IMG/VR virus record: IMGVR_UViG_2534681672_000003
Coordinates: 1-56,022 of that record
From: a virus
Lineage: Duplodnaviria; Heunggongvirae; Uroviricota; Caudoviricetes
Length of the DNA stretch: 56,022 nucleotides
Reading direction: 5' to 3' (one strand)
Each line of letters opens with the position of its first letter. The stretch's first letter is position 1. A program made the position numbers and the translations under genes. Under the pieces are notes generated by a model, which ran no database searches, was not told the origin of the DNA, and worked only from the letters and a program-made list of their open reading frames with translations. Of this stretch, positions 2,237 through 36,496 are shown in pieces.

Positions 2237-2518
2237 TCACATCCAGCCACGAAGTTGATGCTCAACAGCAACCACGTATTCATCGAATATTGACGATATT
2301 TGCGAATCATTAATGATGCGCACGTTTACAAAATATCCGTCTTCCTTAACACATACCGGTTCGCCATCTTCAGTCAGTTCTCCAGTTTCTTTGTACACAT
2401 TACCTATCACGTCAATAAGAATATCATCCTGCATCGACTCGTCATCATAATAGCCAATGCTCTCCATAAAGGCCGAAAAGTCGGCCCTGTCTGCAAATTT
2501 GAGTGTTAAATCTTTCAT
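2237..2518 (-). CDS. hypothetical phage protein (tail-fibre region)
   Basis: 93-aa ORF with strong RBS, start overlapping the stf stop; no family recognised. Confidence 0.4.
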   Translation of the reverse strand: MKDLTLKFADRADFSAFMESIGYYDDESMQDDILIDVIGNVYKETGELTEDGEPVCVKEDGYFVNVRIINDSQISSIFDEYVVAVEHQLRGWM

Positions 2519-4914: not shown

Positions 4915-4924
4915 ATCCACTCCA

Positions 4925-9743: not shown

Positions 9744-10384
9744 TTGTCGGTATACCTCTCTCGTTTGCTCAGTTGTTCAGGAATATGGTGCAGCAGCTCG
9801 CCATCACCACAGTAAATGGCGGCATGATTCGGCACCGATGAACCAAAACAGCACAGCAGCACATCGCCCGGTTGTGCTGATGACAACGGCACCTGATACA
9901 GCCCTGTGGCCTCCAGATTATCCAGATAGAGATTCTGACCGTGACGCCACCAGTCATCCTCGCGATGAAAATCCGGCATCTCAATCCCCGCCAGATGATA
10001 AGCATCCCGGAACAGCGTGTAACAGTCCGTCACCCCGTGCTCAAAGCGCCGCCCGGTGAGATGCGGCACACAGCGGAACTTATGAATCGCCCCCCGGCAG
10101 ACCAGCAACCACGGCAAATCACTCTGCACCTGCAGCCGCCGGTCAGCCTCACTCAGCCAGGGCAGACCACCGGGGTGGCTGTGGACCAGCGCCACAATCT
10201 CACCCTGCATTTCTGCCTGCAGCCAGTCCTCCGGAGCCATCCGGAAATAATCCTCCGGCTCACCGGAGATATTCACGCAGGGGAAATATCTTTCCCCCTC
10301 CGGCGTGCTTACCACGAAGCCGCACGACTCCGCTGGCGCACATCGCCGGGCGTGCGCCAGAATCGCTGATTCTGTCTCTGTCAT
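9641..10384 (-). CDS. K: tail assembly protein K (NlpC/P60 and MPN-like)
   Basis: MTETESAILAHARRCAPAESCGF matches lambda K; ORF trimmed to the ATG at 10384. Confidence 0.9.
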   Translation of the reverse strand: MTETESAILAHARRCAPAESCGFVVSTPEGERYFPCVNISGEPEDYFRMAPEDWLQAEMQGEIVALVHSHPGGLPWLSEADRRLQVQSDLPWLLVCRGAIHKFRCVPHLTGRRFEHGVTDCYTLFRDAYHLAGIEMPDFHREDDWWRHGQNLYLDNLEATGLYQVPLSSAQPGDVLLCCFGSSVPNHAAIYCGDGELLHHIPEQLSKRERYTDKWQRRTHSLWRHRAWRASAFTGIYNDLVAASTFV

Positions 10385-10388
10385 GGGA

Positions 10389-11087
10389 TTACTGCGAAAG
10401 TTTGTTAATGGAAAGGAAGCCGCCAAAGTTGCCGACGTTATTGCGGAACTTACAACCGCTCAGGCATTTGCTGCATTTATCCTTCGTGATATCGGACGTT
10501 GGCTGGTCATATTCATCCGCGACCGCCGGACCGTGATAACCGCACTCATCGCCGCGATAGGTCCAGGTGCAGGTGTTGGCCAGCATGATACGTCCTGGAA
10601 AAACAGCGCCGTCCGTTTCCGTCGGCGTGGACAGTACAAAAGAGGCACTCACCGCGCTCAGTTCGCTGCACTGCTCAATACGCCAGCGGCTGATCACCTC
10701 CTGCTCCGGATCGGCGTCTCTGTTTCCGTTGACGAAGTTCACCGCATCCAGAAAACGGGCATAAACCTTACGCCTGACCACCGTTCCGCCGACCAGACTC
10801 TGCAGATCTTCCGCCATCCCGGTGACCATGCCATACAGGTTAGAAAGCGTCAGCGTGGGGCGCGTACTGGTGCCTTTGCCATTCAGTTCGAAACCACTCC
10901 CCTGAATGGGATACGCCTGATACTGTCGCCCCTGCCAGGTGACCGGCTCACCTTTTTCGTTCTGCTCATTACAGAAAAAATAACGTTCTCCACCAACCTC
11001 TGTCAGATCGATTTCCCAGAGCACCACGCTGGCAGACTGCTCCGCACGGGTGCATTCATTCAGTGTTTCCTGTCGGATATCCTGCAT
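10389..11087 (-). CDS. L: tail tip protein L
   Basis: 232 aa, lambda L-like; correct gene order. Confidence 0.92.
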   Translation of the reverse strand: MQDIRQETLNECTRAEQSASVVLWEIDLTEVGGERYFFCNEQNEKGEPVTWQGRQYQAYPIQGSGFELNGKGTSTRPTLTLSNLYGMVTGMAEDLQSLVGGTVVRRKVYARFLDAVNFVNGNRDADPEQEVISRWRIEQCSELSAVSASFVLSTPTETDGAVFPGRIMLANTCTWTYRGDECGYHGPAVADEYDQPTSDITKDKCSKCLSGCKFRNNVGNFGGFLSINKLSQ

Positions 11088-16915: not shown

Positions 16916-17311
16916 TTATTGCATTCTGGCCAGGCCGCGCTCTGTCATTTCGGCTGCCACACCGGCAGAGACACGAAACGCCGTTCCCGGCAGCACAAAT
17001 GCCACAGGTTCATCCCGCGTGGCGTGAAGTGCATCAGTATGCAGCGTCACCAGTGCCACGACCGTGACCAGAGCAGCCGTATCAGTCACGGTATCCGGCT
17101 GCGCTGATACCACCTCATTTTCATGTCCGGTCAGCGCATTTTCCGGGTTGACAGATGTGTCCTGACCGGCAGCGTCATCCGTGTCATCAAGCTCCTCTTC
17201 CAGCTCTGCCACACGGAGTGCCAGTTCTTCTTTCGTCCCCGTCAGGCTGACATCACGGTTCAGTTGCTCACCCAGCGAGCGGAGACGGGCAATCAGCTCA
17301 TCTTTCGTCAT
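16916..17311 (-). CDS. FI: DNA packaging protein FI
   Basis: MTKDELIARLRSLGEQLNRD... matches lambda FI; trimmed to the ATG at 17311. Confidence 0.9.
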   Translation of the reverse strand: MTKDELIARLRSLGEQLNRDVSLTGTKEELALRVAELEEELDDTDDAAGQDTSVNPENALTGHENEVVSAQPDTVTDTAALVTVVALVTLHTDALHATRDEPVAFVLPGTAFRVSAGVAAEMTERGLARMQ

Positions 17312-17352
17312 GGACTCCTCCACAGAGAAACAATGGCCCCGAAGGGCCATGA

Positions 17353-18141
17353 TTACGCCAGTTGTACGGACACGAACTCATCAGGGTCAGCCAGCAGCAT
17401 CAGCGGTGCTGACTGAATCATGGTGAACTCACGCGCCGGATCGCCGGTGGTCACCCAGTTTTTCGGGTAGCGGGCAGAGGCGTTAATGCCTTCGCGCTGT
17501 GCGTCCGCATCCTGAATGCAGCCATAGGTGCGCAGACCGCGTGCCTGAGTGTTCCCCAGCACCATCGTGTTGTCCGGCAGGAAGTTCTTTTTGACGCCGT
17601 TTTCCACGTACTGTCCGGAATACACGACGATGGCCACATCGCCATACATTCCCTTATAGGACACCGCTTTGCCCAGGTCTTTTACCGCTGTCTCCAGCTC
17701 GGAATGAGAGCCGCGACGGGTATCCAGCTTCTCCCTGACGGCTTTGAAAGAACGGAACAGCGCCCAGCCTTTCGGATCAAACACGATGATATTCACCACA
17801 CCGCTGGCGTTCAGCGCGTAGGCTTCGATATCGTCTGTCGGGTCATACGTGGACTTGTCACGCTTGCTCCACTCCGTGCCGCCGGACTGCGTGATGTTAT
17901 TCGCCTCACTGCGGCCCATATCCACCTCAACCGGATCGAAGGCTTCACCGGTCATGGTGTATTTGCCCTTAAGCACGGCAGAAACTGCCTGCATCTCTTC
18001 GACCTGAGCAATGGCCAGCTCTTCGTCACGCATGTTCTGCATGATGATGCGACGGCGGCGGTAAGTCGGGTCCGCCAGATTCTGCGGATCTTCATCCGGC
18101 AGGCGACGCAGGGTCATCTGCGGATTCACCTCATGCTTCGG
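17353..18141 (-). pseudogene. E: major capsid protein E, 3' fragment (codons from ...PKHEVNPQMTLRRLPDED to the stop)
   Basis: Lambda E C-terminal two-thirds; upstream reading frame hits a stop immediately past 18141, where unrelated AT-rich sequence begins. Confidence 0.9.
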
Positions 18142-18143
18142 CT
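18134..18143. repeat. left copy of 10-bp direct repeat TGCTTCGGCT (att core or target duplication)
   Basis: Identical 10-mer at 29567-29576; both copies lie in E codons K-P-K. Confidence 0.75.
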
Positions 18144-18220
18144 ACATGAGTCAAATATGAAAGGATGTGAATGATTTGATTACGTTTTAGCTATAGAATT
18201 GAAATGGAAAATCCTTGAAT

Positions 18221-18240
18221 GCAATACAACGTGCAATACA
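18221..18240. promoter_or_regulatory. candidate integrase arm-type site GCAATACAA-CGT-GCAATACA (left arm)
   Basis: Same motif in the same orientation at 29419-29438 near the other junction. Confidence 0.5.
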
Positions 18241-18277
18241 TGGATGAAAACCATCACTCATTTAACAAGAGGAATCT

Positions 18278-19183
18278 ATGCGCTCACCCAACAGAATGCA
18301 TGAACGCTCAACATTTTATAAGTATATGTCGTTGAATACCGCGAAGATTGTTCTTGATTCATGCAGCCTTAGATGGAGTTCTCCGGTCCTATTTAATGAC
18401 CCTTTTGATGTTCCAAGAGAAGTTATGCCTGGTATTAACGAAATTAATATTGGCAAAGCTTTAGCCCGCAAGTTAATAGCGGAGTTGATTACCCCCAGAG
18501 AAGACATACAAAATTTAAACCCTAGAATTAGAACAATGCTAAGTGATTTCCAAAAGTCATTTCCTTTAGGCATACCCGCAGGATTAATTGAAAGATTTCA
18601 AGAAATGGTAAACATTCCACCAGTTGGGATTGGCGCTCCTGCGGCAATACAAGAAATGAAAGATGTCTGGCGAGGAATGCTTAATAACAGAAGGATTTTG
18701 TGTTTATCTGAGAGCCCTATAATCACTCCTATGTGGAATCACTATGCCGATAAATATAAAGGTATAGTTATCGAATTTGATTGTGTAGACTTTCTGGATA
18801 GCGCTTGGTTAATAGCCAAACCTATGAAATACACAGATGAAATGCCTCTAACTCACACTGCTGAAGGGATGGCCGAGTTGCTTTTCATGCCAGACAATAA
18901 GTCAATTGAATATATCAATAATGAGATAATATTCATAAAAACAGAAGAATGGGCATATGAAAGAGAGTGGAGAATTTCAACCTACGCTAGGCCAAATAGC
19001 ACTGGTCAATATAGCGACTTAAAATTTCACCCTTTTGAGTTAAAATCTGTAATACTTGGTCCTCTTTTTGATGCCAGCGAGTTCGATGAAGTCGCATCAC
19101 TAGTTAAGATGTATCCAAGAGCGAAATTATTTAAAAGTTCATTTGGGAACGACAGAAAAATATCCATAGTACCACTACCTTAA
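18278..19183 (+). CDS. DUF2971 family protein (AT-rich cargo; candidate anti-phage function)
   Basis: N-terminal YKYMSLNTAKIVLDSCSLRWSSPVLFNDPFD matches the DUF2971 signature as recalled; AAGAGG RBS; low GC. Confidence 0.65.
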   Translation: MRSPNRMHERSTFYKYMSLNTAKIVLDSCSLRWSSPVLFNDPFDVPREVMPGINEINIGKALARKLIAELITPREDIQNLNPRIRTMLSDFQKSFPLGIPAGLIERFQEMVNIPPVGIGAPAAIQEMKDVWRGMLNNRRILCLSESPIITPMWNHYADKYKGIVIEFDCVDFLDSAWLIAKPMKYTDEMPLTHTAEGMAELLFMPDNKSIEYINNEIIFIKTEEWAYEREWRISTYARPNSTGQYSDLKFHPFELKSVILGPLFDASEFDEVASLVKMYPRAKLFKSSFGNDRKISIVPLP

Positions 19184-19223
19184 AAGGTCAAATGCTTTTG
19201 ACAAATAAAATCTATCGCCAGTT

Positions 19224-19240
19224 TTACTGGCGACTTTTAA
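19224..19240. terminator. bidirectional hairpin GCCAGT-TTT-ACTGGC between convergent genes
   Basis: Inverted repeat between the DUF2971 stop and the nu1-like stop. Confidence 0.45.
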
Positions 19241-19289
19241 GCAACAAAGAACCACCTAAGCACTCTTCCTACCTATGGTTTCATTTGTT

Positions 19290-19841
19290 TTAACTTCGCT
19301 GATTATCCTTGATATACCTTTCAGCCATATCTGGAATGTTATCTGAGATCTGGTAAGCTCGAATAAATGCTTTACTGACCTCCATCTTAATGAAGTCCTG
19401 ATACCGTTTTCCCATGCCAGGAAACTGTCGACAGATCGCAAGTGGAAGACTATCAATGATTGCTCCAACTTCCCCAGTTAATTTCGACAAGGCATAAGTC
19501 GCAAATGCAGTGTCAATTACCTCACCTGTTTCGCTGGCATTCTTCAGTTCCTGTGCGTCGGCCTGCGCACGCGTAAGTCGATGGCGTTCATACTCAATAG
19601 TCCCTGGCAGGAGATCTGCCTCGCTGGCCTGCCGCAGTTCTTCAACCTCCCGGCGCAGCTTTTCGTTCTCAATTTCAGCATCCCTTTCGGCATACCATTT
19701 TATGACGGCGGCAGAGTCATAAAGCACCTCATTACCCTTGCCACCGCCTCGCAGAACGGGCATTCCCTGCTCCTGCTAGTTCTGAATGGTACGGATACTC
19801 GCACCGAAAATGTCAGCCAGCTGCTTTTTGTTGGCTTCCAT
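19290..19841 (-). pseudogene. nu1-like small terminase subunit paralogue with in-frame TAG at codon 22 (possible restart at Met27)
   Basis: First two-thirds nearly identical at DNA level to helper nu1 (35283-35828) except TGG to TAG at 19776-19778; C-terminal third diverged. Confidence 0.7.
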
Positions 19842-19859
19842 TGTTCATTCCACGGACAA

Positions 19860-20060
19860 AACCAGAGAAAGGAAACGACAGAGGCCAAAAAGCCTGTTTT
19901 TAGCACCTGTCGTTTCCTTTCTTTTTAGGGGGTGTTTTTAATAAAAACATTAAGTTACGGCGAAGAAGAACGGAAACGCCTTAAACAGGAAAATTTTCAC
20001 AAATAGCGAAAAACTGCGCGCCTGACGCCCCGTAGCCTGTCAGATCGCCGGAAAGGACCC
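19860..20060. other. element cos site (cosB-like R-site sequences plus variant cosN at about 20019-20030)
   Basis: Aligns to helper cos at 35838-36030; flanks conserved, 12-nt overhang positions differ. Confidence 0.65.
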
Positions 20061-20086
20061 GCCAGCCAGAGCGGGCCCTAATTTCA

Positions 20087-20470
20087 TCAACCAATCAGCT
20101 TATAGCGACCATCCCGTGCATTGCGGCGTACACGCTCAATCTTGAGGCATAGCGCCGCATCTGGCTTTTTTGGGACAGGTACGCGGCAATATTCAGAAGC
20201 GCGAGGAATATTATTTATCCAGTCGATCACTTCACTTAAATACCAGGCCTTACGCCCTTCCGTAACCTGCACACGCTCCGGGAACTCTCCACTAGCCTCA
20301 AGGTTTAGCAGTGTACGACGACTCAGGGTTGTAATTTCCATCACCTGATTCATATCAACAAGGCGCTCGCTTAAACACATTTTGTCAGCGATAGCTTTTA
20401 ATTCCTCTACAGCTGGATTCGGGTACATCATTTCGGCAATTGGCTTAAGGTCATTGTAATCATTCTGCAT
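20087..20470 (-). CDS. AlpA/Xis-type HTH DNA-binding protein
   Basis: Motif TTLSRRTLLNLEASGEFPERVQVTEGRKAWYLSEVIDWI; AGGGGG RBS; last gene of the capsid operon, ending about 57 bp from cosN. Confidence 0.6.
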   Translation of the reverse strand: MQNDYNDLKPIAEMMYPNPAVEELKAIADKMCLSERLVDMNQVMEITTLSRRTLLNLEASGEFPERVQVTEGRKAWYLSEVIDWINNIPRASEYCRVPVPKKPDAALCLKIERVRRNARDGRYKLIG

Positions 20471-20481
20471 TGTATCCCCCT

Positions 20482-20823
20482 TTACACACGAGCCAGCGGC
20501 TGAACAGAAATACCTGAGCCAACAAACGCTGCAACCTTTACTGACAGTTCTTTAACAGACTCAGGCCAGTTCAGAGCATCAACATTTAAGACACCTGTCT
20601 TATAGACCTGAGCCTGTGTTTTTTTCGCGGTGTCGATTTGTACAGCGGAAACATAAACCGCTTTACCTACGCTCGAACCATCCCATACCACCAGTGCACC
20701 TGTTGCATCTTCCTGCATCAGTGGCGTAAATGCAGGAATTACCCCTTTATTAGCTGAAAATATCCCCAGCGTAGTCACCAGTGCTTCAGTGCCAGCCATG
20801 AGTTCAGTGTAATGAGTAGCCAT
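20482..20823 (-). CDS. head decoration protein, lambda D-like
   Basis: Alignable by eye to helper D (TPLM, WDG, YK-G, WPE, AF-G-IS shared); AGGGGGAG RBS. Confidence 0.7.
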   Translation of the reverse strand: MATHYTELMAGTEALVTTLGIFSANKGVIPAFTPLMQEDATGALVVWDGSSVGKAVYVSAVQIDTAKKTQAQVYKTGVLNVDALNWPESVKELSVKVAAFVGSGISVQPLARV

Positions 20824-20832
20824 TGCTCCCCC

Positions 20833-21873
20833 TTAGCCAATGCGAACGGTAACAAAACGATTGATGCGGGCCGGTATTGGCTGTGGTGCTGAATGTGTCT
20901 GCACATATTCAATAGCCGGATCACCAGGCACAATATAGTTTTTCGGTGCAAGTTCGGCTTTAGTCAGCCCCATTCGGATTAGCTCCGGATCCTGAATACC
21001 GCCATAGGCGACAATCCCCTGAAGAGCCGTATTGCCAAGCACCATCAAATCAGGATCAAGGAAATGTTTTTCTGTTCCGTCCTCGTCGGTATAACGCCCG
21101 CTGTAAACAACAATCGCAACATCGCCCATATACCCTTTAAAACTCACCGAATCACCAAGGTCTTTAAGGGCCGTTTCCAGTTCGGAATTAGAACCACGAC
21201 GGGTATCCAAAGCCTCTTTTATCGCTCTGAATGAACGGTATTTCTTCCATACATTACCACCCATAATGATGATATTAGTGACGCCCTCACTAAATTCTGC
21301 GTAGCTCTCAATATCATCATTTGGATCAAAAGTTTCTTTATCCTTACCTGACCACTCAGTACCGCCAGACTGAGTGATGATATTTTGTGGTTTTATATTC
21401 CAGTCCAGCTCATAACGTTCAATACCATCGCCCTCAATGATATTTTTCCCCGTTGTGATAGCCTGAACAGCAAGCCATTCAATACGTGCACGAATAGCTT
21501 TAGCCTGATTTACAATCGCCTGTTTAACTTTAATATTACGCGCCCCAAAAGCATTGTATTGCTCAGGTGACACACCAGCAGGGCGCACAGCTAACTTATT
21601 TGGATCAATGCTGCTTTTCGGCTTCATATAACCTGGACGAATTGTTTTTGATTCGTATCCCTCATCTCGTGAAACTTTACTGCCCACCATAGGAGAGCAA
21701 AACGCCGCGATCGGGATATTTGGATCGTCGATCGTATCAAGAATAATGTCTCTCGATTCAAACATTACCGAGCGAGTGAAAAACAAACTGGTAAACAACG
21801 CATTTAATTTTTTTTGTACATCTACAGCATTAACCACCTGTACAAGCTGAGTAGGCGAATATAAATCAACCAT
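20833..21873 (-). CDS. major capsid protein, lambda E-like (HK97 fold)
   Basis: 346 aa, alignable over the full length to helper E (ITQSGGTEWS, ALDTRRGSNSELETA, DVAIVVYSG shared); start trimmed to the ATG after AAGAGG. Confidence 0.8.
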   Translation of the reverse strand: MVDLYSPTQLVQVVNAVDVQKKLNALFTSLFFTRSVMFESRDIILDTIDDPNIPIAAFCSPMVGSKVSRDEGYESKTIRPGYMKPKSSIDPNKLAVRPAGVSPEQYNAFGARNIKVKQAIVNQAKAIRARIEWLAVQAITTGKNIIEGDGIERYELDWNIKPQNIITQSGGTEWSGKDKETFDPNDDIESYAEFSEGVTNIIIMGGNVWKKYRSFRAIKEALDTRRGSNSELETALKDLGDSVSFKGYMGDVAIVVYSGRYTDEDGTEKHFLDPDLMVLGNTALQGIVAYGGIQDPELIRMGLTKAELAPKNYIVPGDPAIEYVQTHSAPQPIPARINRFVTVRIG

Positions 21874-22074
21874 ACGCATCCTCTTTGCATTCATTAAAAA
21901 TAATTGTGGATATATGCTATCACCGATATTTGTCATGCGAACACATGCAACCGAGTGCAATGTTGTATAAAGTTTTGGGGTGACAACTTCAGTGCGGACA
22001 ATTAGTGTTAATATCTTCACTCCCTTTGGTCGGGATTTATGTAGCATGCAGGAAAATTTATTTTTTCCGGCCTT

Positions 22075-22792
22075 TTTGTGCACAGAAAACCCCCAGCTAG
22101 GCTGGGGGTTCCGGAAAGCTTTCAGCTTTGAGCCAGTTATTAAAACCCCTTTTGATTTGTTAAAACACTTTGCGGTCTGGCAACTGCAAGTGTCAAACAA
22201 GAAATCAAAAGGGGGTCCCAATGGGGAACGAAAAGAGCTTAGCGCACACCCGATGGAACTGTAAATATCACATAGTTTTTGCGCCAAAATACCGAAGACA
22301 GGTGTTCTACAGAGAGAAGCGTAGAGCAATAGGCAGTATTTTGAGAAAGCTGTGTGAGTGGAAAAGCGTACGGATTCTGGAAGCTGAATGCTGTGCAGAT
22401 CATATCCATATGCTTGTGGAGATCCCGCCCAAAATGAGCGTATCCGGGTTTATGGGATATCTGAAAGGGAAAAGCAGTCTGATGCTTTACGAGCAGTTTG
22501 GTGATTTGAAATTCAAATACAGGAACAGGGAGTTCTGGTGCAGAGGGTACTACGTCGATACAGTGGGTAAGAACACGGCGAAGATACAGGATTACATAAA
22601 GCACCAGCTTGAAGAGGATAAAATGGGAGAGCAGTTATCGATTCCCTATCCGGGCAGCCCGTTTACGGGCCGTAAGTAACGAAGTTGGATGCAAATGTCA
22701 GATCGTGTGCGCCTGTTAGGGCGCGGCTGGTAAGAGAGCCTTATAGGCGCATTTGAAAAACCTCCGGCTATGCCGGAGGATATTTATTTTAT
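22075..22792 (+). mobile_element. IS200 insertion sequence
   Basis: IS200-type TnpA flanked by terminal hairpins (about 22087-22110 and 22771-22789); boundaries approximate. Confidence 0.8.
22221..22679 (+). CDS. tnpA: IS200 transposase TnpA (Y1/HUH)
   Basis: MGNEKSLAHTRWNCKYHIVFAPKYRRQVFY... matches IS200 TnpA as recalled; trimmed to the ATG at 22221. Confidence 0.92.
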   Translation: MGNEKSLAHTRWNCKYHIVFAPKYRRQVFYREKRRAIGSILRKLCEWKSVRILEAECCADHIHMLVEIPPKMSVSGFMGYLKGKSSLMLYEQFGDLKFKYRNREFWCRGYYVDTVGKNTAKIQDYIKHQLEEDKMGEQLSIPYPGSPFTGRK

Positions 22793-22801
22793 TGGCAATA
22801 T

Positions 22802-23251
22802 TTAAAACGGGATATCATCTCCCCATTGCTCATTATCTCCCACTGGTGGCTGGCTTCCTTGCTGATCTGCCTGTTGTTTTGCTCTGTTCAGTGCGTCAGT
22901 AGCCTGCCCCTGTTGGCCTTTATTGCCGCCCGGTCGCACCGATCGCGCACTGATTACGCTGTCTGCGATAACCTGCCAGCCCTGCCGCGTTTCGCCGTTC
23001 TGTCCAGTCCACTGGCTCATCTGCATGTTACCCGCCACGCTCAGGAGTTCGCCTTTGTGATGCTTTGCCAGCGCGTCGGCTTGTCTGCCAAACGCCAGGA
23101 CAGATAACCACATCGTCGCCTGACCGTCATCCGACTGACTGCAGGGCAGTGATACCGCCATACGCGCCAACGTCATGGGGGTGCCCTTGCTGGTCTGTTT
23201 TGTCTGCGGGTCGTCCACCGACCGCCCGTAAACTGATATTTGCGCCGTCAT
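22802..23251 (-). CDS. SSB-like protein with C-terminal DDIPF tip
   Basis: Ends ...NEQWGDDIPF (SSB acidic-tip motif); glycine/glutamine-rich linker; AT-skewed neighbourhood. Confidence 0.5.
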   Translation of the reverse strand: MTAQISVYGRSVDDPQTKQTSKGTPMTLARMAVSLPCSQSDDGQATMWLSVLAFGRQADALAKHHKGELLSVAGNMQMSQWTGQNGETRQGWQVIADSVISARSVRPGGNKGQQGQATDALNRAKQQADQQGSQPPVGDNEQWGDDIPF

Positions 23252-23493
23252 GCGGCCTGCTCTCCGGACTTAATATTGATTGTTGTCACTTCCTCCGCTT
23301 CAGCAATCTCCCGTTCGGTCAGAGTGGCAAAGTTTGCAGCCGCCGTTGTCATGAATGCGCTAATCAGTTCGGGATGTGCTTTCGCGTATCCTTCCCCGGC
23401 GTTGCGGTCGATGATTTTTATCGACACCCTTAACCAGTGTTCCGTCAAATCAAGGGCGTGCGATTGTGATTTTTTTGTGTGCTTCGCTGTCAT
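23248..23493 (-). CDS. hypothetical protein
   Basis: 81-aa ORF, stop overlapping the SSB-like start. Confidence 0.35.
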   Translation of the reverse strand: MTAKHTKKSQSHALDLTEHWLRVSIKIIDRNAGEGYAKAHPELISAFMTTAAANFATLTEREIAEAEEVTTINIKSGEQAA

Positions 23494-23538
23494 AGGCTTT
23501 ATCTCACAGCAGTAAATTAAAATTTTTGCGTTTTAACC

Positions 23539-23770
23539 CTTCACCTGTTCACCTTTTGATATTTTCTCTTTTAATTCATAATGTTAATGGGTGAACAGTT
23601 TCACAAAAACTATTCACCAACTGTTCACCACTGTTCACCCTTGAAGCTCAATAAACAATCAAAAAGGTGAACAGTGAATAGTTTGGTGAACAGTTCATAA
23701 ATAACTGTTCACCCTATAATATACTGATATAAAAGATATTTATGACAGGGTGAACAGTGGTGAACAGTTA
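23539..23770. repeat. replication-origin iterons, about 9 copies of TGTTCACC / GGTGAACAG in both orientations
   Basis: Octamer recalled as the P4 alpha binding site at ori/crr; lies directly downstream of the primase-helicase gene. Confidence 0.7.
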
Positions 23771-23780
23771 TTCCATAAGT

Positions 23781-25601
23781 TTAATTTTTGCTATCGTCAT
23801 TAGTGACCGATACACATGATGGCATCCAGTCTTCTGATTCCTCCGTCAGGGTCACGTTTGAACGCAAACCGTGCTTCGTTTTCCGTTTCATATACTCCCT
23901 GCCATATTCCGCCATTGCCCCCGGCATATCTTTACCGAAGCGCGTCAGTGTTACAGGTTTACCAAACCCATGTGCCCTCATATAAGCCAGATAGGCATGA
24001 TAGAGATACCTGCGTGGGCTGAATGGCACAATTTCAGCATTACCCACTAACAGGCCATCACACATTACCGATGCCATGAGATAACCGCAGAAGTCCACCA
24101 GCGAATCCCCCTCTCGCTTTATCGCCAGTGCTTCTTCAGATTTCTGCTGCTCATATAACAGGCGTCTGGCTTCGTCCTGATCAGCAAACCTTGTAAGCAG
24201 ATGACGAATCACTACCGCCAGCTCACCTTCTATTTTTTCCGCCAGCATCGAATCGCGTTCGTTCTCCGGTACAACTTCCGAAAAATTGAATATCACCCGA
24301 CGACGTGAGATCCCCCCGCTGCGGTCACTGAATGACATGGCGTTATTGTTAACCGCCAGCACTACTGCCGGAATACGCGTTGAATAGGGGGCTTTGTGTT
24401 TCGGGTCAATTGCCACCTTGTCACCGCCTGTAATGGCCTTAATCCCTGCCCCATCACCAGCGTAGCGGGTCATATCCGGCATGATAATCAGCGAAAAGCC
24501 AACCACTAACGCACGTTCCCTTGCATCTTCCAGCGCCTTCATGCTTGCTGATACTGTATTAGCCTTACCCGCCAGCATGGTGCAAATCTCCGCCATCACA
24601 CTTTTACCACTTCCCCCCGGCCCTGTTACCTCAATGAATAACTGCCAGTCGTACCGGTTCGCCAGCACCATGAATAATGCCGCCAGTACGCGATCTGCCT
24701 TGCGGTCATTCTCAGCCACCGAACGGCGCAACCACTTCCAGAAATTCGGCGCATGTGTTGCCAGCGTTTCCCCCTCTGCTGGTGGGCTGAAAGGTAATTC
24801 ACTGGCAATTAACAACCAGTCGTTTTTGTTATGCTCCCGAAAGTTACCAGTTCTGGTATCAAATACCCCGTTACTGAATCCAATCAGGTTACGGGCTGTA
24901 TTCCCCATTACAGGCAAACTTAACTTCATGGTATCTACCGCCGATTTAATAGCGTTCTGCGAATAGCTGATCTCCGCATCAATGAAAATCTGCGCCATAG
25001 CACGCTGTAACTCTTTATCCTGAACCGGCTCCCATACAACGCCGTTGTAATGATGAACGGTGTCAGAGTCGGCATTGATTGCCAGTTCGCCGCCGTAATG
25101 TGCAAGGAGAACTTCACCGCGCTGGCTGGCCCCCATCTGATTCAACGCCAAAGATGAAGCACGCTCGTCATTTTTGCGCTCAGCCTTCTTCACTGGCAGT
25201 TCAATCACCAGACTTTCCCCATGCTCCGCTTCAGCTTTTAGGCCGACAAGGCGCGGAGTCCAGTCTTCAGGCTCTCGATCAACAAAGCTACGGTAACAAC
25301 GTGCTTCCTTTACGCCTGCAATAGCAAGTAATGTCGCAACCTTCGTCAGACTTTTCTCTGCAATCTTTCCGGCACGATAAACACGCACATAATGACGGCC
25401 TTCATCGATAATTTGCATATCATCCAGGTTTTCCAGTTGTTCCGTACCCAGAATGACTGGTGGTGTATCATCTGCTGCAATATGCTTACCTGCCCATTCA
25501 TTCCATTCTTTTGCATGGCTCCAGGCATCACTGCCAGCAAAAATGATGACTTCCGTCATTTTGTCGCGCGGTTGGTATTTTAAGTTCGGAGCACGTTTCA
25601 T
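23781..25601 (-). CDS. replication initiation primase-helicase (P4 alpha-like, P-loop NTPase)
   Basis: Walker A VTGPGGSGKS; 606 aa; GGAGG RBS; adjacent to the iteron origin. Confidence 0.65.
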   Translation of the reverse strand: MKRAPNLKYQPRDKMTEVIIFAGSDAWSHAKEWNEWAGKHIAADDTPPVILGTEQLENLDDMQIIDEGRHYVRVYRAGKIAEKSLTKVATLLAIAGVKEARCYRSFVDREPEDWTPRLVGLKAEAEHGESLVIELPVKKAERKNDERASSLALNQMGASQRGEVLLAHYGGELAINADSDTVHHYNGVVWEPVQDKELQRAMAQIFIDAEISYSQNAIKSAVDTMKLSLPVMGNTARNLIGFSNGVFDTRTGNFREHNKNDWLLIASELPFSPPAEGETLATHAPNFWKWLRRSVAENDRKADRVLAALFMVLANRYDWQLFIEVTGPGGSGKSVMAEICTMLAGKANTVSASMKALEDARERALVVGFSLIIMPDMTRYAGDGAGIKAITGGDKVAIDPKHKAPYSTRIPAVVLAVNNNAMSFSDRSGGISRRRVIFNFSEVVPENERDSMLAEKIEGELAVVIRHLLTRFADQDEARRLLYEQQKSEEALAIKREGDSLVDFCGYLMASVMCDGLLVGNAEIVPFSPRRYLYHAYLAYMRAHGFGKPVTLTRFGKDMPGAMAEYGREYMKRKTKHGLRSNVTLTEESEDWMPSCVSVTNDDSKN

Positions 25602-25885
25602 TTGTTACCTCCGGCAACTAACATTGCCCGAATTTTACGGATATAGCCTGCGGCACGCCTCTGATTATCTGTCTTGCAATTTTTTACCAGAATGAAATCT
25701 CTTTCGAACTGCTGACGCGGCATAACACATTCAAAATCATAACCATCACGCAAATAAGAGACACGACGATCATCAACCGAAATAATCTTTACCCGATAGC
25801 CATAGCTGTCTTTGAAAATATCCCCAAGGCTGATTTTTGAATGAGTTTGACCGCTGGCAATAAAGCCAGAAAATTTATTTTTCAT
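25598..25885 (-). CDS. hypothetical protein (replication operon)
   Basis: 95-aa ORF with ATGA overlap onto the primase start. Confidence 0.4.
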   Translation of the reverse strand: MKNKFSGFIASGQTHSKISLGDIFKDSYGYRVKIISVDDRRVSYLRDGYDFECVMPRQQFERDFILVKNCKTDNQRRAAGYIRKIRAMLVAGGNK

Positions 25886-25888
25886 TTT

Positions 25889-26113
25889 TTATTCTCCGGT
25901 ATAGCTCTGGTCGTGTATTTTTATAGCTTCATCCAGCTCTTTGATGACAGGATCAAGTAACGTAATTAACGCTCCAGCTAAATTAGCATCCCGTTCATCG
26001 TGTTCCGCATTTGTTGTCCCATCAAGCCAGGTTGATAAGATTTCTCGCATATTTTTGCCACAAACGAGCGCGTTTTCAGCATGTGTCAGCACTTTAAAAT
26101 AAAGATCATTCAT
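25889..26113 (-). CDS. hypothetical protein
   Basis: 74-aa ORF in the same operon. Confidence 0.35.
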   Translation of the reverse strand: MNDLYFKVLTHAENALVCGKNMREILSTWLDGTTNAEHDERDANLAGALITLLDPVIKELDEAIKIHDQSYTGE

Positions 26114-26471
26114 GGCACACCTCCTGACGAATACGGGCGGCGAATATCATCACGTAGCCAGTTGGGAATTGCTGGCGGGCTTCCTGTTCGCTGGCGGCCT
26201 CGATGTGTATTACGCGTGGTTGTGCGGTGCTCAGGGCGATAAAACGCCAGATGAAATTGTTTTCGCATTTCTGAATAAACAGCGTGTTTTCTTCACGCCC
26301 TTTCCAGAAAGCCGCAGTATAGCCCATCTCCTTAACCATCTTGCGGGCATCAACCAGCGTGTCAGCGGCAACATGTACCGTAGTTGCTCCATCTGCCATG
26401 CGGTCGTGGTGTAGTGCCAGAAAGGTGTATATAAATTTAGGGTGAGTTTGGGTATGCTGTGTTCCAGCCAT
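26106..26471 (-). CDS. hypothetical protein, first gene of the leftward operon
   Basis: 121 aa from the ATG after a GAGG RBS; the longer ORF-track version runs antisense through the neighbouring gene and was trimmed. Confidence 0.45.
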   Translation of the reverse strand: MAGTQHTQTHPKFIYTFLALHHDRMADGATTVHVAADTLVDARKMVKEMGYTAAFWKGREENTLFIQKCENNFIWRFIALSTAQPRVIHIEAASEQEARQQFPTGYVMIFAARIRQEVCHE

Positions 26472-26554
26472 AATCGTTACCTCGTTTAACGGTTTGGTTA
26501 GAAGCCCGGTTAGTGTTCGCGCACTGCCGGGTTTCGTCGTTTTTATGAATCGAT

Positions 26555-26670
26555 CATTGTGAGATACATAGCGACCATGATGTGAGATATACATTATAAT
26601 GTGGTGATATACATTGCAAGTGTTTTTATATCTCACTTTTGTGTATAGTGATATACACATAACAAATTGG
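26555..26670. promoter_or_regulatory. divergent promoter/operator region with repeated GTGAGATA(T)ACAT and GTGATATACA motifs
   Basis: At least five direct and inverted copies between the divergent operons. Confidence 0.6.
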
Positions 26671-26679
26671 TGATTAACT

Positions 26680-26982
26680 ATGTCTGTATACAAAAATGCA
26701 AAATCGCAAATGACAACGATCAGGGTTCCCCACGATGTTATGGAGGGCATGGAATCCGTAAAACTGGACGGCGAAAGCAACGCCGGATTCATAGTAACCG
26801 CCATGCGCGGTGAGATCGCCCGCCGCCAGGCAGAAGGAAGCGGAGAAAATCCCCTCGTGTCTTCACTGGATGCCTTAGCTAAGGTCGAACAAATCGGCAT
26901 CAAGGCAGCGGAGGAAATCGGGCAACTCGTAGCCGTCGCTCGTGAAGAACTCCAGCGGCGTAAAGCCAAAGAATCTGAATAA
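26680..26982 (+). CDS. putative ribbon-helix-helix (CopG/Arc-like) regulator
   Basis: TTIRVPHDVMEGMESVKL...NAGFIVTAMRGEI fits a strand-helix-helix pattern; sits beside the operator repeats. Confidence 0.4.
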   Translation: MSVYKNAKSQMTTIRVPHDVMEGMESVKLDGESNAGFIVTAMRGEIARRQAEGSGENPLVSSLDALAKVEQIGIKAAEEIGQLVAVAREELQRRKAKESE

Positions 26983-27332
26983 TTACTATCAGCGCCGTGA
27001 TGTGAGTAACTACGGCGCATTGCTATGTAAATACTGGCAATAAACAGAAAAGGTAGTTCTACTCCGAATAATTTTATCTGACACTACTCCTGAACTAACA
27101 TGCGCTTATCTTACAGGATATAAATATAGATCCATAAAATCACGATTAAATAAAGCCGCTCCAAACATAAACCACACCCAACGCTTAACAAGATAGCAAC
27201 AAACAGATAAATAACTTGCAGAAATATTTATCGCAAGGATTATCATTATTAATTACAAATCACTTTACCAAGTCATTCCCCTCTCTTATCATAAAGAGAA
27301 AGTAATAAATAAGTTAAGGGAGTTAGAATACT

Positions 27333-27869
27333 ATGAATCTAAAAAAAATAGCCACAAACATAAAAAACAAGATAATAGAAACATTCAATAAACTTATATT
27401 AGAGGCATCTAAAACCCCCACACAAGATGAAATTAAAATACTTGAGAGAAGAAGTAAAAAGTTTAATTACTCCTTTTTCTCATACGCAGTCACAGGAGCC
27501 ATAATGGTTTTTTGCTCTCAACCATTAATAAAATACGCAAACCCAATGCTTATTTTATTGAGTGGTCTGTTACTGTCTATCATCATTATCCTTCTCAGAA
27601 TGATTTATATTTCACAAGCGAATGCATCATGGACAACCAAAAAACGTTCACATGTACTAGTTCATTTTCTTTCTGCATGTTTCATAGCGTCAACATTGAC
27701 GTTGTTATATCAGGCTTACGATAATAACATCACACACAAATTGTACTGTAAAAATATACAACAACTTATTGAAAAAAGGATAGAAACAGAAAAAAATATC
27801 AGCATATTCAGTGGGATGCAATGCACCCCGGCATATGATTACTCTTTATTTGGATTTAATCTCTTATAA
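27333..27869 (+). CDS. AT-rich membrane protein (cargo, unknown function)
   Basis: 178 aa, hydrophobic segments, very low GC, preceded by about 300 bp of AT-rich DNA. Confidence 0.5.
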   Translation: MNLKKIATNIKNKIIETFNKLILEASKTPTQDEIKILERRSKKFNYSFFSYAVTGAIMVFCSQPLIKYANPMLILLSGLLLSIIIILLRMIYISQANASWTTKKRSHVLVHFLSACFIASTLTLLYQAYDNNITHKLYCKNIQQLIEKRIETEKNISIFSGMQCTPAYDYSLFGFNLL

Positions 27870-27938
27870 AGAATGTTATTACTGATTTGAGTGCAAATTC
27901 TCAAATCAGTAATTCATAATATTTTATTCTGAGATAAT

Positions 27939-28166
27939 TTAAACTACCCACTCACCTCGAATCCATGCCTGCACTTCTGAAAGACGATATGCAACAGCAG
28001 TGGAGCCAATCTTGATCCGCTTAGGAAATTTCCCTTCCTTCTCCAGCTTCCAGCGTGTGCTGTTCGCAAGAGTGGTTAGCTCCCGACATTCTTTCTCACG
28101 GATCATACGATCGATGTTAGGAATGTACTCCAAACCCTTTTTATCAACAATCGCCATTTTTTTCAT
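27939..28166 (-). CDS. alpA: AlpA-family transcriptional regulator/excisionase
   Basis: 75 aa with AlpA-type HTH (LTTLANSTRWKLEKEGKFPKRIKIG); directly downstream of int. Confidence 0.75.
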   Translation of the reverse strand: MKKMAIVDKKGLEYIPNIDRMIREKECRELTTLANSTRWKLEKEGKFPKRIKIGSTAVAYRLSEVQAWIRGEWVV

Positions 28167-28167
28167 G

Positions 28168-29403
28168 TTAACCAGCCTTTTGTTTGAGGATTATCACTTT
28201 TGAATCAGCACCTGCGATGCTATTGAGATATGTAGTCCAGAGTTCCAGAGCATCCAGTTTTTTAGCCATAAACTTACTCCGGTTGTAAACACCTGCCACG
28301 CCAGGTAGCGCATGGCCTAACAGTTGTTCTACTACATAAAATTCAACACCGAGATCACTTAGATGAGTAGATAGCGTTCTTCTAAGGTCGTGTAGTGACC
28401 ATTGTTTTTCATGGCCCAAACGTTTACCGATTTTCCCCCCAATCTTGCTTACGCTTTCTCTAATTCGCAGACTTCCCAGCACATAACCAGTATGTTTTGT
28501 CTCTTCGTGAACATCCGTTACCCACTGTCGTAGAATTTCAGGTACTGGTCTGACGATTTCAACACCAGTTTTTGAGTGATCTTTTGGTACCGTCCAAACC
28601 CAACTTTCGAGATCCCATTCGCTCCATTCAGATAATCGGGCTTCACTCATTCGACATCCAAATACTGTACAAAGCACAAACATTTTTCGCGTGTATTCAG
28701 ACATTAGTTTTAAATCAGGCTCGACAAAAATTGCCTTCCAGAGCTGGCCCAGTTCGGCTTCATCCAGAACCCGATCCCGCTTACCTGCAATCTGCCCCAC
28801 ATCACTCATGCGCAAATCCTTTAAAGCATCACATGTCGCGTACTGGCGTACCCGACAAAAACGAAGAGCTAATTTAGTGTCAGAAAAAACATACGCCGCC
28901 ATAACTGGTGCATTACGTTTAATTCGGTCAAAACAGTCCAGCCATTCATATAGGTGAGTGTCATTTACAGGCAAATGACCGATATAGGGAAAGATATGCT
29001 TTCGAAATCTGCCAAGCGTTACAGCATGAGTTTTACGACGCACCTTACAGTAATTTTCATACCAGTAATTTAGTGCATCCTCCACTGTGACCGGCTTTAA
29101 GCGTTCTTCAGCCTGAATCTTAATCTGGATACGCGGATCACGTTTGTCAGCCAACCAACCACGGCACTCGTCGCGCTTTTCCCTTGCCTGTTTGAGTGAC
29201 ATATCAGGATATTTACCCAACGTTAGCCAGACCGGAGCAGCCCGGCCACCTGCTAACCTGTAGAAGAAAACAAAGCTCACAGCCCCCTTGGTACTCACAC
29301 GAATAGAAAGCCCCTTTCCATCAGCAATGGTGATCTGCTTTTCTCTGGGTTTCCCCAGATATCCTTTAAGCGCTTTGTCGCTCAGTTTGTTCTCGCCAGC
29401 CAT
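28168..29403 (-). CDS. int: tyrosine integrase, P4/CP4-57 family with N-terminal arm-binding domain
   Basis: N-terminus LSDKALKGYLGKPREKQITIADGKGLSIRVSTKG; C-terminal HDLRRT...LLGH...Y catalytic motifs; trimmed to the ATG at 29403. Confidence 0.85.
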   Translation of the reverse strand: MAGENKLSDKALKGYLGKPREKQITIADGKGLSIRVSTKGAVSFVFFYRLAGGRAAPVWLTLGKYPDMSLKQAREKRDECRGWLADKRDPRIQIKIQAEERLKPVTVEDALNYWYENYCKVRRKTHAVTLGRFRKHIFPYIGHLPVNDTHLYEWLDCFDRIKRNAPVMAAYVFSDTKLALRFCRVRQYATCDALKDLRMSDVGQIAGKRDRVLDEAELGQLWKAIFVEPDLKLMSEYTRKMFVLCTVFGCRMSEARLSEWSEWDLESWVWTVPKDHSKTGVEIVRPVPEILRQWVTDVHEETKHTGYVLGSLRIRESVSKIGGKIGKRLGHEKQWSLHDLRRTLSTHLSDLGVEFYVVEQLLGHALPGVAGVYNRSKFMAKKLDALELWTTYLNSIAGADSKVIILKQKAG

Positions 29404-29418
29404 TTTTAGCCCCAAAAA

Positions 29419-29438
29419 GCAATACAAGCTGCAATACA
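29419..29438. promoter_or_regulatory. candidate integrase arm-type site GCAATACAA-GCT-GCAATACA (right arm)
   Basis: Matches the left-arm motif at 18221-18240. Confidence 0.5.
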
Positions 29439-29566
29439 GAGATGATTGCAACACACAGATAACGAGGAAAATTCAGTGAAAGCGCCAGATAAACTTATTC
29501 TTTATTATCAAAAGATTAAGTGTAAAAACCAGCAACTACACGAAAGCCTCAGAAAGCCATGCTAAG

Positions 29567-29576
29567 TGCTTCGGCT
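29567..29576. repeat. right copy of 10-bp direct repeat TGCTTCGGCT
   Basis: Identical to 18134-18143. Confidence 0.75.
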
Positions 29577-29811
29577 TGACATATCCCGGCGTAAATTCAG
29601 AGGTGGAGCCGCCACGGGAACGGATAACCTCACCGGAAACAATCGGCGAAACGTACAGCGCCATGTTTACAAGTCCCGGAATTTGTGAGAGATAGACTTT
29701 CTCCGTAGTGAAGGGATAGCTCTCACGGAAAAAGAGACGCAGAAACAGCGGATCAAACTTAAATTTCTGCTCATTTGCCGCCAGCAGCTGGGCGGTTGTG
29801 TACATCGACAT
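29567..29811 (-). pseudogene. E: major capsid protein E, 5' fragment (MSMYTTAQLL...GYVKPKH)
   Basis: Lambda E N-terminus; frame leaves E sequence right after KPKH at the junction. Confidence 0.9.
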
Positions 29812-29866
29812 AAAAAAATCCCGTAAAAAAAGCCGCACAGGCGGCCTTTAGTGATGAAGGGTCAGG

Positions 29867-30199
29867 TTAAACGATGCTGATTGCCGTTCCGGCAAACGCG
29901 GTCCGTTTTTTCGTCTCGTCGCTGGCAGCCTCCGGCCAGAGCACATCCTCATAACGGAACGTGCCGGACTTGTAGAACGTCAGTGTGGTGCTGGTCTGGT
30001 CAGCAGCAACCGCCAGAATGCCAACGGCAGCACCGTCGGTGGTGCCATCCCAAGCAACCAGCTTACGGGTGGAGGTGTCCAGCATCAGCGGGGTCATTGC
30101 AGGCGCTTTCGCACTCAATCCGCCGGGCGCGGTTGCGGTATGAGCCGGGTCACTGTTGCCCAGCGGCTGGTAATGGGTAAAGGTTTCTTTGCTCGTCAT
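29867..30199 (-). CDS. D: head decoration protein D
   Basis: [12 protein letters not shown]... matches lambda D. Confidence 0.95.
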
Positions 30200-31602: not shown

Positions 31603-35282
<3,680 letters not shown>

Positions 35283-35308
<26 letters not shown>

Positions 35309-35828
35309 TCAGCAACCCCGGTATCAGTTCATCCAGCGCGGCTGCTTTGTTCATGGCTTTGATGATATCCCGTTTCAGGAAATCAACATGTCGGTTTTCC
35401 AGTTCCGGAAAACGCCGCTGCACCGACAGGGGGATCCCGTCGAGAATACTGGCAATTTCACCTGCGATCCGCGACAACACGAAAGTACAGAATGCGGTTT
35501 CCACCACTTCAGCGGAGTCTCTGGCATTCTTCAGTTCCTGTGCGTCGGCCTGCGCACGCGTAAGTCGATGGCGTTCGTACTCAATAGTCCCTGGCTGGAG
35601 ATCTGCCTCGCTGGACTGCCGCAGTTCTTCAACCTCCCGGCGCAGCTTTTCGTTCTCAATTTCAGCATCCCTTTCGGCATACCATTTTATAACGGCGGCA
35701 GAGTCATAAAGCACCTCATTACCCTTGCCACCGCCTCGCAGAACGGGCATTCCCTGTTCCTGCCAGTTCTGAATGGTACGGATACTCGCACCGAAAATGT
35801 CAGCCAGCTGCTTTTTGTTGACTTCCAT
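35283..35828 (-). CDS. nu1: terminase small subunit Nu1
   Basis: 181 aa, MEVNKKQLADIFGASIRTIQNWQEQGMPVLRGG... matches lambda Nu1. Confidence 0.96.
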
Positions 35829-35837
35829 TGTTCATTC

Positions 35838-36030
35838 CACGGCCAAAAACAGAGAAAGGAAACGACAAAGGCCCAAAAGTTCGTTTTCAGCACCTGTCGT
35901 TTCCTTTCTTTTCAGGGGGTATTTTAAATAAAAACATTAAGTTACGACGAAGAAGAACGGAAACGCCTTAAACCGGAAAATTTTCATAAATAGCGAAAAC
36001 CCGCGAGGTCGCCGCCCCGTAACCTGTCGG
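35838..36030. other. prophage cos site (cosB R sites plus cosN; 12-nt cohesive end at 36006-36017)
   Basis: Plus strand AGGTCGCCGCCC is the reverse complement of lambda GGGCGGCGACCT; flanks match the lambda genome ends as recalled. Confidence 0.9.
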
Positions 36031-36496
36031 ATCGCCGGAAAGGACCCGTTGGCCGTTCTGGTCTACTTCGTAATGGGATTTAATAGCTGAACGACAAAAG
36101 TCTTGCGACCACAGTCACACAGACCTGAATACACGTCCTGTTTCTTCCACCCCCGCACAGGACTGGCGAGCATGAGGGACACCCCCGCGAACCATAAACG
36201 CGGTAAAAACCCGGTGTGCATCGTTTTTGATTATTCCCGCACACTCACGCAGAAGGAATTCCCCGTCGGGCTACGGTCATGGTTAATGCGGGAATACGGC
36301 GACGATACAGCGCAGCTAAAAGGGTAATGGACAGATAGAGCGGTTTATTTCATTCCACAGGATTCTGAGTGCCCCCCCCCTCCTCCAATAGGCTGAGCAT
36401 CCACCTATATAGTTTTAATTTTCATCAATCCATTTAACTATCGTTTAATTGTTGTCACATAGGATTCTGCCGTTTTTAACAATGCAGGATAATAAG

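Follow-up and report, generated by a model that had tools for sequence, protein, structure and literature searches.

Phage satellites such as P4 with its helper P2 and SaPIbov5 with cos phages are packaged by the helper terminase by means of a helper-like cos site and without a satellite terminase, and the cohesive ends of P4 and SaPIbov5 match those of the helper. In phage-inducible chromosomal islands (PICIs) with Rpp, cosQ and cosN are like those of the helper, while the cosB is foreign and is read by Rpp, a protein of 135–153 amino acids without the tail that binds the large terminase subunit (TerL) (PMC6739421; PMC9026076). Helper-embedded PICIs are exemplified by Eco567.11capE, which resides with a 10-bp identity block in prophage 50icd of Escherichia coli NRG857c (Tommasini, Mageeney and Williams, 2023; PMC10111431). 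Excision and replication of the NRG857c satellite were demonstrated, composite virions were not detected, and 11capE was said to lack terS, the gene for the small terminase subunit (TerS), with only a 258-bp, 90%-identical stretch common to satellite and helper at the position of the lambda cos (PMC10111431). Here, we analyse a member of this family in a stretch of 56,022 nucleotides (IMG/VR record IMGVR_UViG_2534681672_000003, positions 1 to 56,022), which as a whole is referred to as the window and in which the satellite interrupts gene E, coding for the major capsid protein, in a lambda-like prophage, its presumed helper. The satellite carries a lambda-type cos with a substituted cohesive end beside a chimeric, amber-interrupted terS, termed nu1', and this arrangement is probably best explained by a functional, helper-mimicking cos accompanied by a redundant and decaying terS, with the cohesive end representing tolerated natural variation.

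Judged by its sequence, the element is a member of the published Eco567.11capE family, as its attachment site lies in gene E, its core genes are co-oriented with the helper late genes, it carries an integrase, AlpA, a primase and a capsid gene of its own, and its size falls within 10–20 kb. Along the minus strand, the genes are ordered int, AlpA, primase, ssb, E', D', an AlpA-like helix-turn-helix (HTH) gene, cos and nu1', while a cargo gene (DUF2971) lies on the plus strand. The NRG857c element shares the integrase, the 10-bp att block in gene E, the orientation, the gene order and the variant cosN, but differs in that no more than 14 codons of nu1 are left and the cargo is DUF262+HEPN, and was called terS-less (PMC10111431). 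Identity to NRG857c is 97.3% across the shared 83% of the query. The element is hence not new, and both the family and the cos-like stretch are already contained in the published account (PMC10111431).

The preliminary description had recognized a repeat of the helper nu1-cos region in the element, and indeed positions 19533–20060 align without gaps with helper positions 35520–36047, at an offset of 15,987. When the pairwise alignment is read segment by segment to locate the divergence, identity to the helper amounts to 97.4% in nu1 codons 1–103 (8/309 nucleotides differ) and 91.5% in cosB (13/153 differ), the 24-base interval from cosB to cosN has 3 differences, cosQ with the spacer to cosN is 93.3% identical (2/30 differ), and cosN itself is identical at 7/12 positions. 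Outside the repeat, identity is only 28% directly left of cosQ, and nu1 codons 104–183 reach 49%. On the plus strand, the cohesive end reads CGCCTGACGCCC in the element (20019–20030) and AGGTCGCCGCCC in the helper (36006–36017), corresponding on the minus strand to GGGCGTCAGGCG and to GGGCGGCGACCT, the latter being the lambda end. The mismatches fall at positions 6, 8, 9, 10 and 12, with base pairs 1–5 kept, and 5 differences in 12 positions stand against a background of 5% in the rest of the block (binomial p = 2e-4). The conserved flanks noted beforehand are borne out, as the CG dinucleotides flanking both predicted nick sites and cosQ are retained in the element. Sites R3, R2 and R1, described earlier as R-site-like, are in fact exact lambda motifs in the lambda register, without insertions or deletions relative to the helper, and integration host factor (IHF) would, by analogy with lambda, be expected to bind at the I1 region between R3 and R2. 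The two cos sites have the same orientation and lie 15,987 bp apart, that of the satellite being located 16 kb downstream of that of the helper.

Compared with the lambda cos, the satellite site thus has the same cosQ, the same nick-flanking CG pairs and the same R3-I1-R2-R1 architecture and spacing, with variation confined mostly to base pairs 7–12, but it sits on an element without TerL. On sequence grounds, it appears lambda-type in every testable respect except the sequence of cosN. It resembles P4 and SaPIbov5 in having a helper-like cos, but its ends mismatch those of the resident helper. With EcCICFT073-type PICIs that use Rpp (Fillol-Salom, 2019; Murialdo and Feiss, 2022), the element shares a satellite cos upstream of a TerS-like gene, the presumed dependence on helper TerL and lambda-like helpers. 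The relation of the two cos parts is, however, reversed in comparison to Rpp systems, as the cosB is that of the helper (91.5% identity, identical R sites) and cosN differs, and nu1' is a full-length gene of 183 codons with a C-terminal domain, whose match to RppC is marginal (E 0.05, over the HTH). From its sequence, the locus is therefore not an Rpp system.

Differences at cosN base pairs 7–12 are common among lambda-like phages, N15 differing at positions 9 and 12 and Gifsy-1 at 8, 9 and 11, and lambda TerL nicks sites with variation at base pairs 7–12 efficiently, whereas the nick-flanking CG pairs and cosQ are conserved (Feiss laboratory; PMC4669245). Four of the five changes in the element lie at base pairs 8–12, and the change at base pair 6 occurs alone in another lambda-like cos (L070). 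Relative to the cosN of N15, Gifsy-1 and phiD326, the satellite has five changes instead of the two to three of the cited phages, and one of them is at base pair 6. Three composites were compared, and in each the satellite has GGGCGTCAGGCG and the helper the canonical end. An exact-match scan of IMG/VR for the GGGCGTCAGGCG allele returned 56 loci, about 50 of them satellites. In three others (L138, L170 and L180) it forms an ordinary phage cos, followed by a canonical Nu1 (98–99%) and gpA, which rules out that the variant end is absent from real phages; in L170, gpA is 99.2% identical to that of the helper over all 641 residues and the E gene is uninterrupted. A third cohesive-end allele, GGGCGGAAGGCG, is found near 21155–21231 in L004 (NZ_LR883007.1), beside a gpA 99.1% identical to that of the helper. 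L004 is a 46-kb N15-like plasmid prophage (protelomerase, CyRepA1) with lambda-type head and tail genes.

Nor is the variant end a universal hallmark of satellites. This notion held in biased samples, but an unbiased scan of IMG/VR, anchored on the satellite-specific flank and cosQ, yielded 90 satellite cos sites with 50 variant, 34 canonical (38%) and 6 other ends, and embedded satellites of Kosakonia and Cedecea have the same cohesive end as their helpers. A count of 97 genomes with the variant allele is an upper bound, as the search also catches relatives with another 12-mer, such as the N15-like plasmid. The earlier view that the substituted end is peculiar to the element is thereby overturned, since the same 12-mer stands beside canonical Nu1 and gpA in prophages and more than a third of the satellites are canonical; by the sequences compared, the cohesive end of the satellite is one of several natural alleles, which differ at positions 6–12, where lambda terminase would tolerate change, and it is neither unique to satellites nor universal among them. 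As the allele occurs in ordinary prophages and the changes fall mostly in the tolerant half of cosN, a special mechanism is not required.

The gene next to this cos, nu1', is assigned to the Phage_Nu1 family (PF07471, E 3e-81, residues 1–162) and falls into two parts of different origin. Residues 1–102 are of the helper type, with residues 1–98 matching lambda TerS (6HN7_B, E 5e-58), while from residue 103 onward the protein is 69% identical in amino acids to the TerS' of a Kosakonia satellite, and its C-terminal 92 residues are only 47% identical to helper Nu1. A helper-type N-terminal part joined to a C-terminus of the satellite TerS lineage identifies nu1' as a recombinant chimera, with the switch point located in a RLTRAQADAQELKNA stretch that is nearly unchanged in all compared TerS proteins. 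The near-identity of the first two-thirds to helper nu1 had been described correctly (8/309 nucleotides differ), and the divergence of the C-terminal third was likewise real; it does not, however, reflect a drifted helper copy, since this third belongs to a satellite TerS lineage of its own, in which the domain is conserved. Between nu1' and the Kosakonia TerS', this domain has a nonsynonymous divergence (dN) of 0.21 at saturated synonymous divergence (dS), with a dN/dS of approximately 0.08. Another known phage TerS as the source of the C-terminal third was sought by tblastn in 50,697 phage records and rejected, the closest being lambda Nu1 at 38–39%. A protein-database search with the nu1' C-terminus gave four matches only, including truncated remnants in Klebsiella that added no information. 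In L127 and L128, these remnants (10001–10399) are N-terminally truncated and frame-shifted copies of a satellite-type TerS C-terminal domain, and they lie in an unrelated island (AlpA, AAA_25, NikA-like, TrbL) without terminase. In comparison to the laboratory lambda-21 chimeric TerS (cited in PMC9026076), nu1' is a natural chimera, found in a satellite and often inactivated.

The reading frame of nu1' is interrupted in the window, while it is intact in relatives. Inspection of window and helper confirmed that Trp22 (TGG) has become TAG at 19776–19778, and the exact 61-nucleotide stretch including this TAG recurs in 17 complete E. coli genomes that were assembled independently and whose hosts, on several continents, include humans, birds and a frog. 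The same nu1 form is carried by 32 complete E. coli genomes, and in 17 of them it is the amber allele; the sampled non-amber copies (8/8) are annotated as intact 183-residue proteins. Among 17 nu1' copies that were read, the amber codon lies on three haplotypes, each with one private nonsynonymous change, and RefSeq annotates nu1' in SCU-102 as "internal stop". Occurrence in 17 genomes and on three haplotypes marks the TAG as a real and, to judge from these sequences, moderately old allele; a sequencing or assembly error, for which nothing but prior suspicion spoke, has next to no probability. The window contains no tRNA gene, and with it no amber suppressor tRNA. The proposed restart frame at Met27 does exist, as an open reading frame (19290–19763) for 157 amino acids extends to the normal stop, and its product is possible. 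The GAG24 codon variant, which creates the AGGAG in front of this Met27, is also common in ordinary helper nu1 genes.

Two packaging modules occur in the wider family. The Kosakonia satellite, whose lambda-like helper prophage likewise harbours it in gene E, encodes a full-length member of the Nu1 family that is divergent throughout, and its cosB is unlike that of the helper. The arrangement is the same in many E. coli-type satellites in IMG/VR, which have a GGTGGTGGTGGTTTTGTT motif at the R3 position together with their own TerS' of ~180 amino acids, with 34% identity to Nu1; for the divergent satellite TerS', no match exists in the PDB. Full-length, highly divergent TerS' genes (~170–185 amino acids) beside a private cosB with the GGTGGTGGTGGTTTTGTT motif were seen in L136, L139, L151, L175, L193 and others, as well as in L005 (17502–18017), and the combination resembles an alternative to Rpp that has yet to be described. 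Where satellites have a cosB and a TerS' of their own, there are 34 canonical, 8 variant and 6 other cohesive ends, whereas sampled satellites with a lambda-type cosB have 40 variant and no canonical ends (Fisher p = 3e-17, kinship ignored). When a synthetic satellite cos of the window type, with lambda cosB and the canonical cosN, was compared with 5,426 complete E. coli genomes, no match was better than the five-mismatch level.

Within the lambda-cosB group, nu1' occurs as an intact chimera, as an amber chimera, as a 14-codon stub (NRG857c) or is absent, and where it is absent the helper homology stops just after R1. Lineages in which the spacers have drifted to 63–77% identity nonetheless keep R3, R2, R1 and the exact distance from cosN to R3, which argues for selection on the function of these sites. 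The N-terminal part of nu1' and cosB are mosaic with helper alleles while the cosN allele persists, and satellite-specific differences cluster in the cosQ-cosN stretch, which is nearly invariant among helpers. Ongoing exchange between a satellite and its own resident helper was considered and set aside, as three composites gave no such signal.

The explanation that we favour, and hold to be probable on the basis of these comparisons, is the functional, helper-mimicking cos with a redundant, decaying terS introduced above. After induction and excision, helper Nu1, together with IHF, would bind the satellite cosB like its own and position helper gpA to nick the same two lambda sites, and satellite concatemers would be packaged between satellite cos sites. 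The resulting 12-nucleotide GGGCGTCAGGCG ends would be compatible with one another and mismatched with helper ends at 5/12 positions. Cleavage by a lambda-type terminase receives indirect support from the natural pairing of the same cosN allele with a 99%-identical gpA in prophages. The present arrangement would have arisen when the satellite's original cosB and the 5' portion of its terS were exchanged for a lambda-type segment that reaches from cos into the 5' portion of nu1. The recombination junction would lie in the conserved RLTRAQADAQELKNA-coding stretch, and the chimeric TerS would be a recombination scar. As the satellite cosB mimics that of the helper, nu1' would be redundant, and it would now be decaying: roughly half of the copies carry the amber codon, and most other lambda-cosB satellites have a shortened nu1' or none. 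A background with variant cosN may have received the lambda-type cos, or an L170-like phage may have supplied this cos in its entirety. Since cosN lies only ~30 bp from the left edge of homology, recombination with the helper would rarely replace it, even if later exchange homogenised nu1' and cosB, and the satellite has probably kept its cosN allele through this edge position; ancestry and the edge effect are therefore favoured over selection as the reason for the association between variant end and lambda-type cosB.

Several observations weigh against this explanation. The authors of PMC10111431 detected no composite virions, and the tolerance of the cosN change is argued from its natural occurrence. 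The C-terminal domain of nu1' is strongly conserved between genera and about half of the hybrid terS genes are intact, so that a role may remain where the gene is intact, while the nu1' copies, which are >=99% similar, differ too little to test properly for relaxed selection. Finally, 40/40 lambda-cosB satellites carry the variant end in spite of mosaic nu1' and cosB, which could mean selection.

Selection of this kind is the core of an alternative in which the cohesive-end difference is adaptive, either as a private sticky end that stops molecules with one helper and one satellite cos from circularising or as a shift of nicking efficiency in favour of the satellite. With two cos sites 15,987 bp apart in the same orientation, unexcised composite concatemers would make mixed-cut molecules likely, and the strict association of end and cosB type, the unsuccessful search of 5,426 genomes for a canonical-cosN counterpart, the clustering of satellite differences in an otherwise near-invariant stretch and the persistence of the allele amid mosaicism are all in line with it. 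However, the sequences are related, so that perhaps only one to three independent events underlie the association, the ~30 bp to the homology edge can by themselves shield cosN from conversion, and no clear fitness gain for the satellite can be derived for chimeric molecules; the allele is moreover found in ordinary prophages, Kosakonia and Cedecea satellites share the end of their helper and many E. coli satellites are canonical, which leaves an adaptive end unlikely, though not negligible. A broader proposal is that satellites have two ways to differ from the helper cos, namely a private cosB with an own full-length TerS, or a copied cosB with a private end that selection keeps mismatched, so that genomes with one cut of each kind would fail to circularise. 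We regard this as unlikely, too; if it were true, the cohesive-end sequence would be a compatibility code between phage and parasite. It is highly improbable that late-gene capture left the element with a cos that no longer functions and that the satellite of the window strain is not packaged. PICIs are known to capture helper late genes, composite virions of NRG857c were not detected, the helper in the window has a frameshifting 73-bp duplication in gene C and the satellite an IS200C insertion, but the homology starts exactly at cosQ and often ends right after R1, a complete cos is kept whatever the state of nu1', R sites and spacings are conserved in spacer-drifted lineages, and the family is widespread.

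A further alternative is that the amber allele is functional. Restart at Met27 would then give a 157-residue TerS without the recognition helix but with the oligomerisation region and the satellite C-terminus, which could co-assemble with helper Nu1 or bind gpA and modulate helper packaging, or interfere with it, in an Rpp-like manner. The AGGAG 6 nucleotides before the Met27 ATG and the frame open to the normal stop agree with this, as do the frequency of the allele (17/32) across diverse hosts and countries and the lack of a second inactivating mutation in L002, L134, L149 and the window, the four amber copies that were read, and Rpp is a precedent for a TerS-like satellite protein that can act via heterodimers (PMC6739421). 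Yet the codon that creates the AGGAG is common in ordinary helper genes, each amber haplotype has a private nonsynonymous change, and the copies are too young for the open frame to count. Furthermore, nu1' is absent from most lambda-cosB satellites, so that its product is not needed for spread, and interference via the shared cosB would also hit the satellite itself, hence a functional amber allele is considered improbable.

The coordinates of the features are collected in Table 1.

Table 1. Features of the satellite and its presumed helper in the window (positions refer to the window; ".", no strand).
Feature	Position	Strand	Basis or remark
Helper major capsid gene E, 3' fragment	17353..18143	-	RefSeq annotation and E-gene mapping
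attR identity block TGCTTCGGCT	18134..18143	.	identical 10-mer at each junction
Satellite (helper-embedded PICI, 11capE family)	18144..29566	-	~11.4 kb including IS200C insertion
DUF2971 cargo gene, variable slot downstream of cos	18278..19183	+	Pfam
nu1', chimeric small-terminase gene, 183 codons, PF07471	19290..19841	-	amber-interrupted
Satellite-lineage C-terminal domain of nu1'	19290..19532	-	position of TerL-binding end in lambda Nu1
Candidate restart frame from Met27, 157 amino acids	19290..19763	-	AGGAG 6 nt upstream of ATG (19761-19774)
Part of nu1' of helper type, codons 1-103, with the regions for DNA binding and dimerisation	19533..19841	-	97.4% identical to helper nu1
Amber codon 22 (TGG to TAG)	19776..19778	-	plus-strand CTA; helper has TGG
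R1 site	19866..19881	-	motif match
R2 site, inverted orientation	19907..19922	-	motif match
I1 (predicted IHF-site) region between R3 and R2	19940..19957	-	alignment
R3-type cosB site (CGTTTCCGTTCTTCTT)	19963..19978	-	cosN distance as in helper
Satellite cosN cohesive-end positions, GGGCGTCAGGCG	20019..20030	-	flanking CG kept
Satellite cosQ (GGGTCCT)	20054..20060	-	helper homology begins here; lambda distance from cosN
AlpA-like HTH gene directly upstream of satellite cos	20087..20470	-	Pfam, RefSeq annotation
attL identity block TGCTTCGGCT	29567..29576	.	identical 10-mer at each junction
Helper major capsid gene E, 5' fragment	29567..29811	-	RefSeq annotation and E-gene mapping
Helper gene A (TerL)	33383..35308	-	sole large terminase in composite
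Helper nu1 (TerS)	35283..35828	-	open reading frame
Helper cosN, canonical lambda GGGCGGCGACCT	36006..36017	-	motif match

The borders of the element follow from the intact E gene of L004, which maps to the window at 17043–18143 and 29567–30111 with an overlap of 10 bp, so that helper gene E is split at 18143/29567 into two pseudogene fragments. RefSeq annotation of the near-identical loci L001–L003 (98.8–99.98% identity) identifies the integrase as a tyrosine integrase and lists no TerL gene in the element, and Pfam matches to AlpA and HDPD were obtained. Besides the 90 satellite cos sites in IMG/VR, the whole element is present in at least 36 E. coli genomes, while an integrase-based scan limited to one genome per species gave three loci only. 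The element was not found in the phage records searched, and a literature search brought up no later paper treating the cos of 11capE. Excised attP junctions were sought in the compared loci and none was found; given the variable right end of the satellite, this result carries no information.

Several further observations concern the cargo and the integrity of the composite. The DUF2971 gene (18278–19183, plus strand) has a match in PADLOC to PDC-S31, a candidate defence family (E 2.5e-32), and its place is taken by DUF262+HEPN in NRG857c and by still different genes in other loci, which points to the region from cos to attR as a variable cargo or defence hotspot. An IS200C element at ~22088–22880 (tnpA 22221–22679; Rfam STnc490 22088–22211) lies between ssb and E' and is missing from most relatives. 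The satellite's own major capsid protein E' and decoration protein D' (20482–22329, minus strand) are ~41–45% and 38% identical to helper E and D, respectively, with the E gene of the helper interrupted. In the helper, a 73-bp perfect tandem duplication is located in gene C (S49 protease/Nu3 scaffold, 30864–31009); the stretch is single-copy in the SCU-102 record, which is otherwise 99.98–100% identical to the window. Since the duplication shifts the frame of gene C, this helper copy may be unable to build heads, or else the duplication may be an assembly artefact. At 3943–4320, two tandem 189-bp copies with 84% identity lie inside an 801-codon open reading frame (2515–4920), whose position after J and lom suggests a side tail-fibre gene.

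Taken as a whole, the locus represents mostly known biology and not a new kind of system, as the satellite class has been published, the cosN polymorphism is of a tolerated type and the gene beside it is decaying. The details that go beyond the published account (PMC10111431) are the cohesive-end allele, the chimeric terS with its amber form, the two packaging modules and the complete linkage between a lambda-type cosB and a cohesive end unlike that of the helper. For annotation, a "terminase small subunit, internal stop" within a split capsid gene should be read as a sign of a satellite and not of a broken phage. The locus also raises the question of whether a five-base difference in the sticky ends matters when helper and satellite cos are present in cis. 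As regards the family, capE satellites appear to switch between a private site with an own small terminase and mimicry of the helper site, and the window would catch an intermediate between these two packaging strategies, in the form of a chimeric small terminase under loss.

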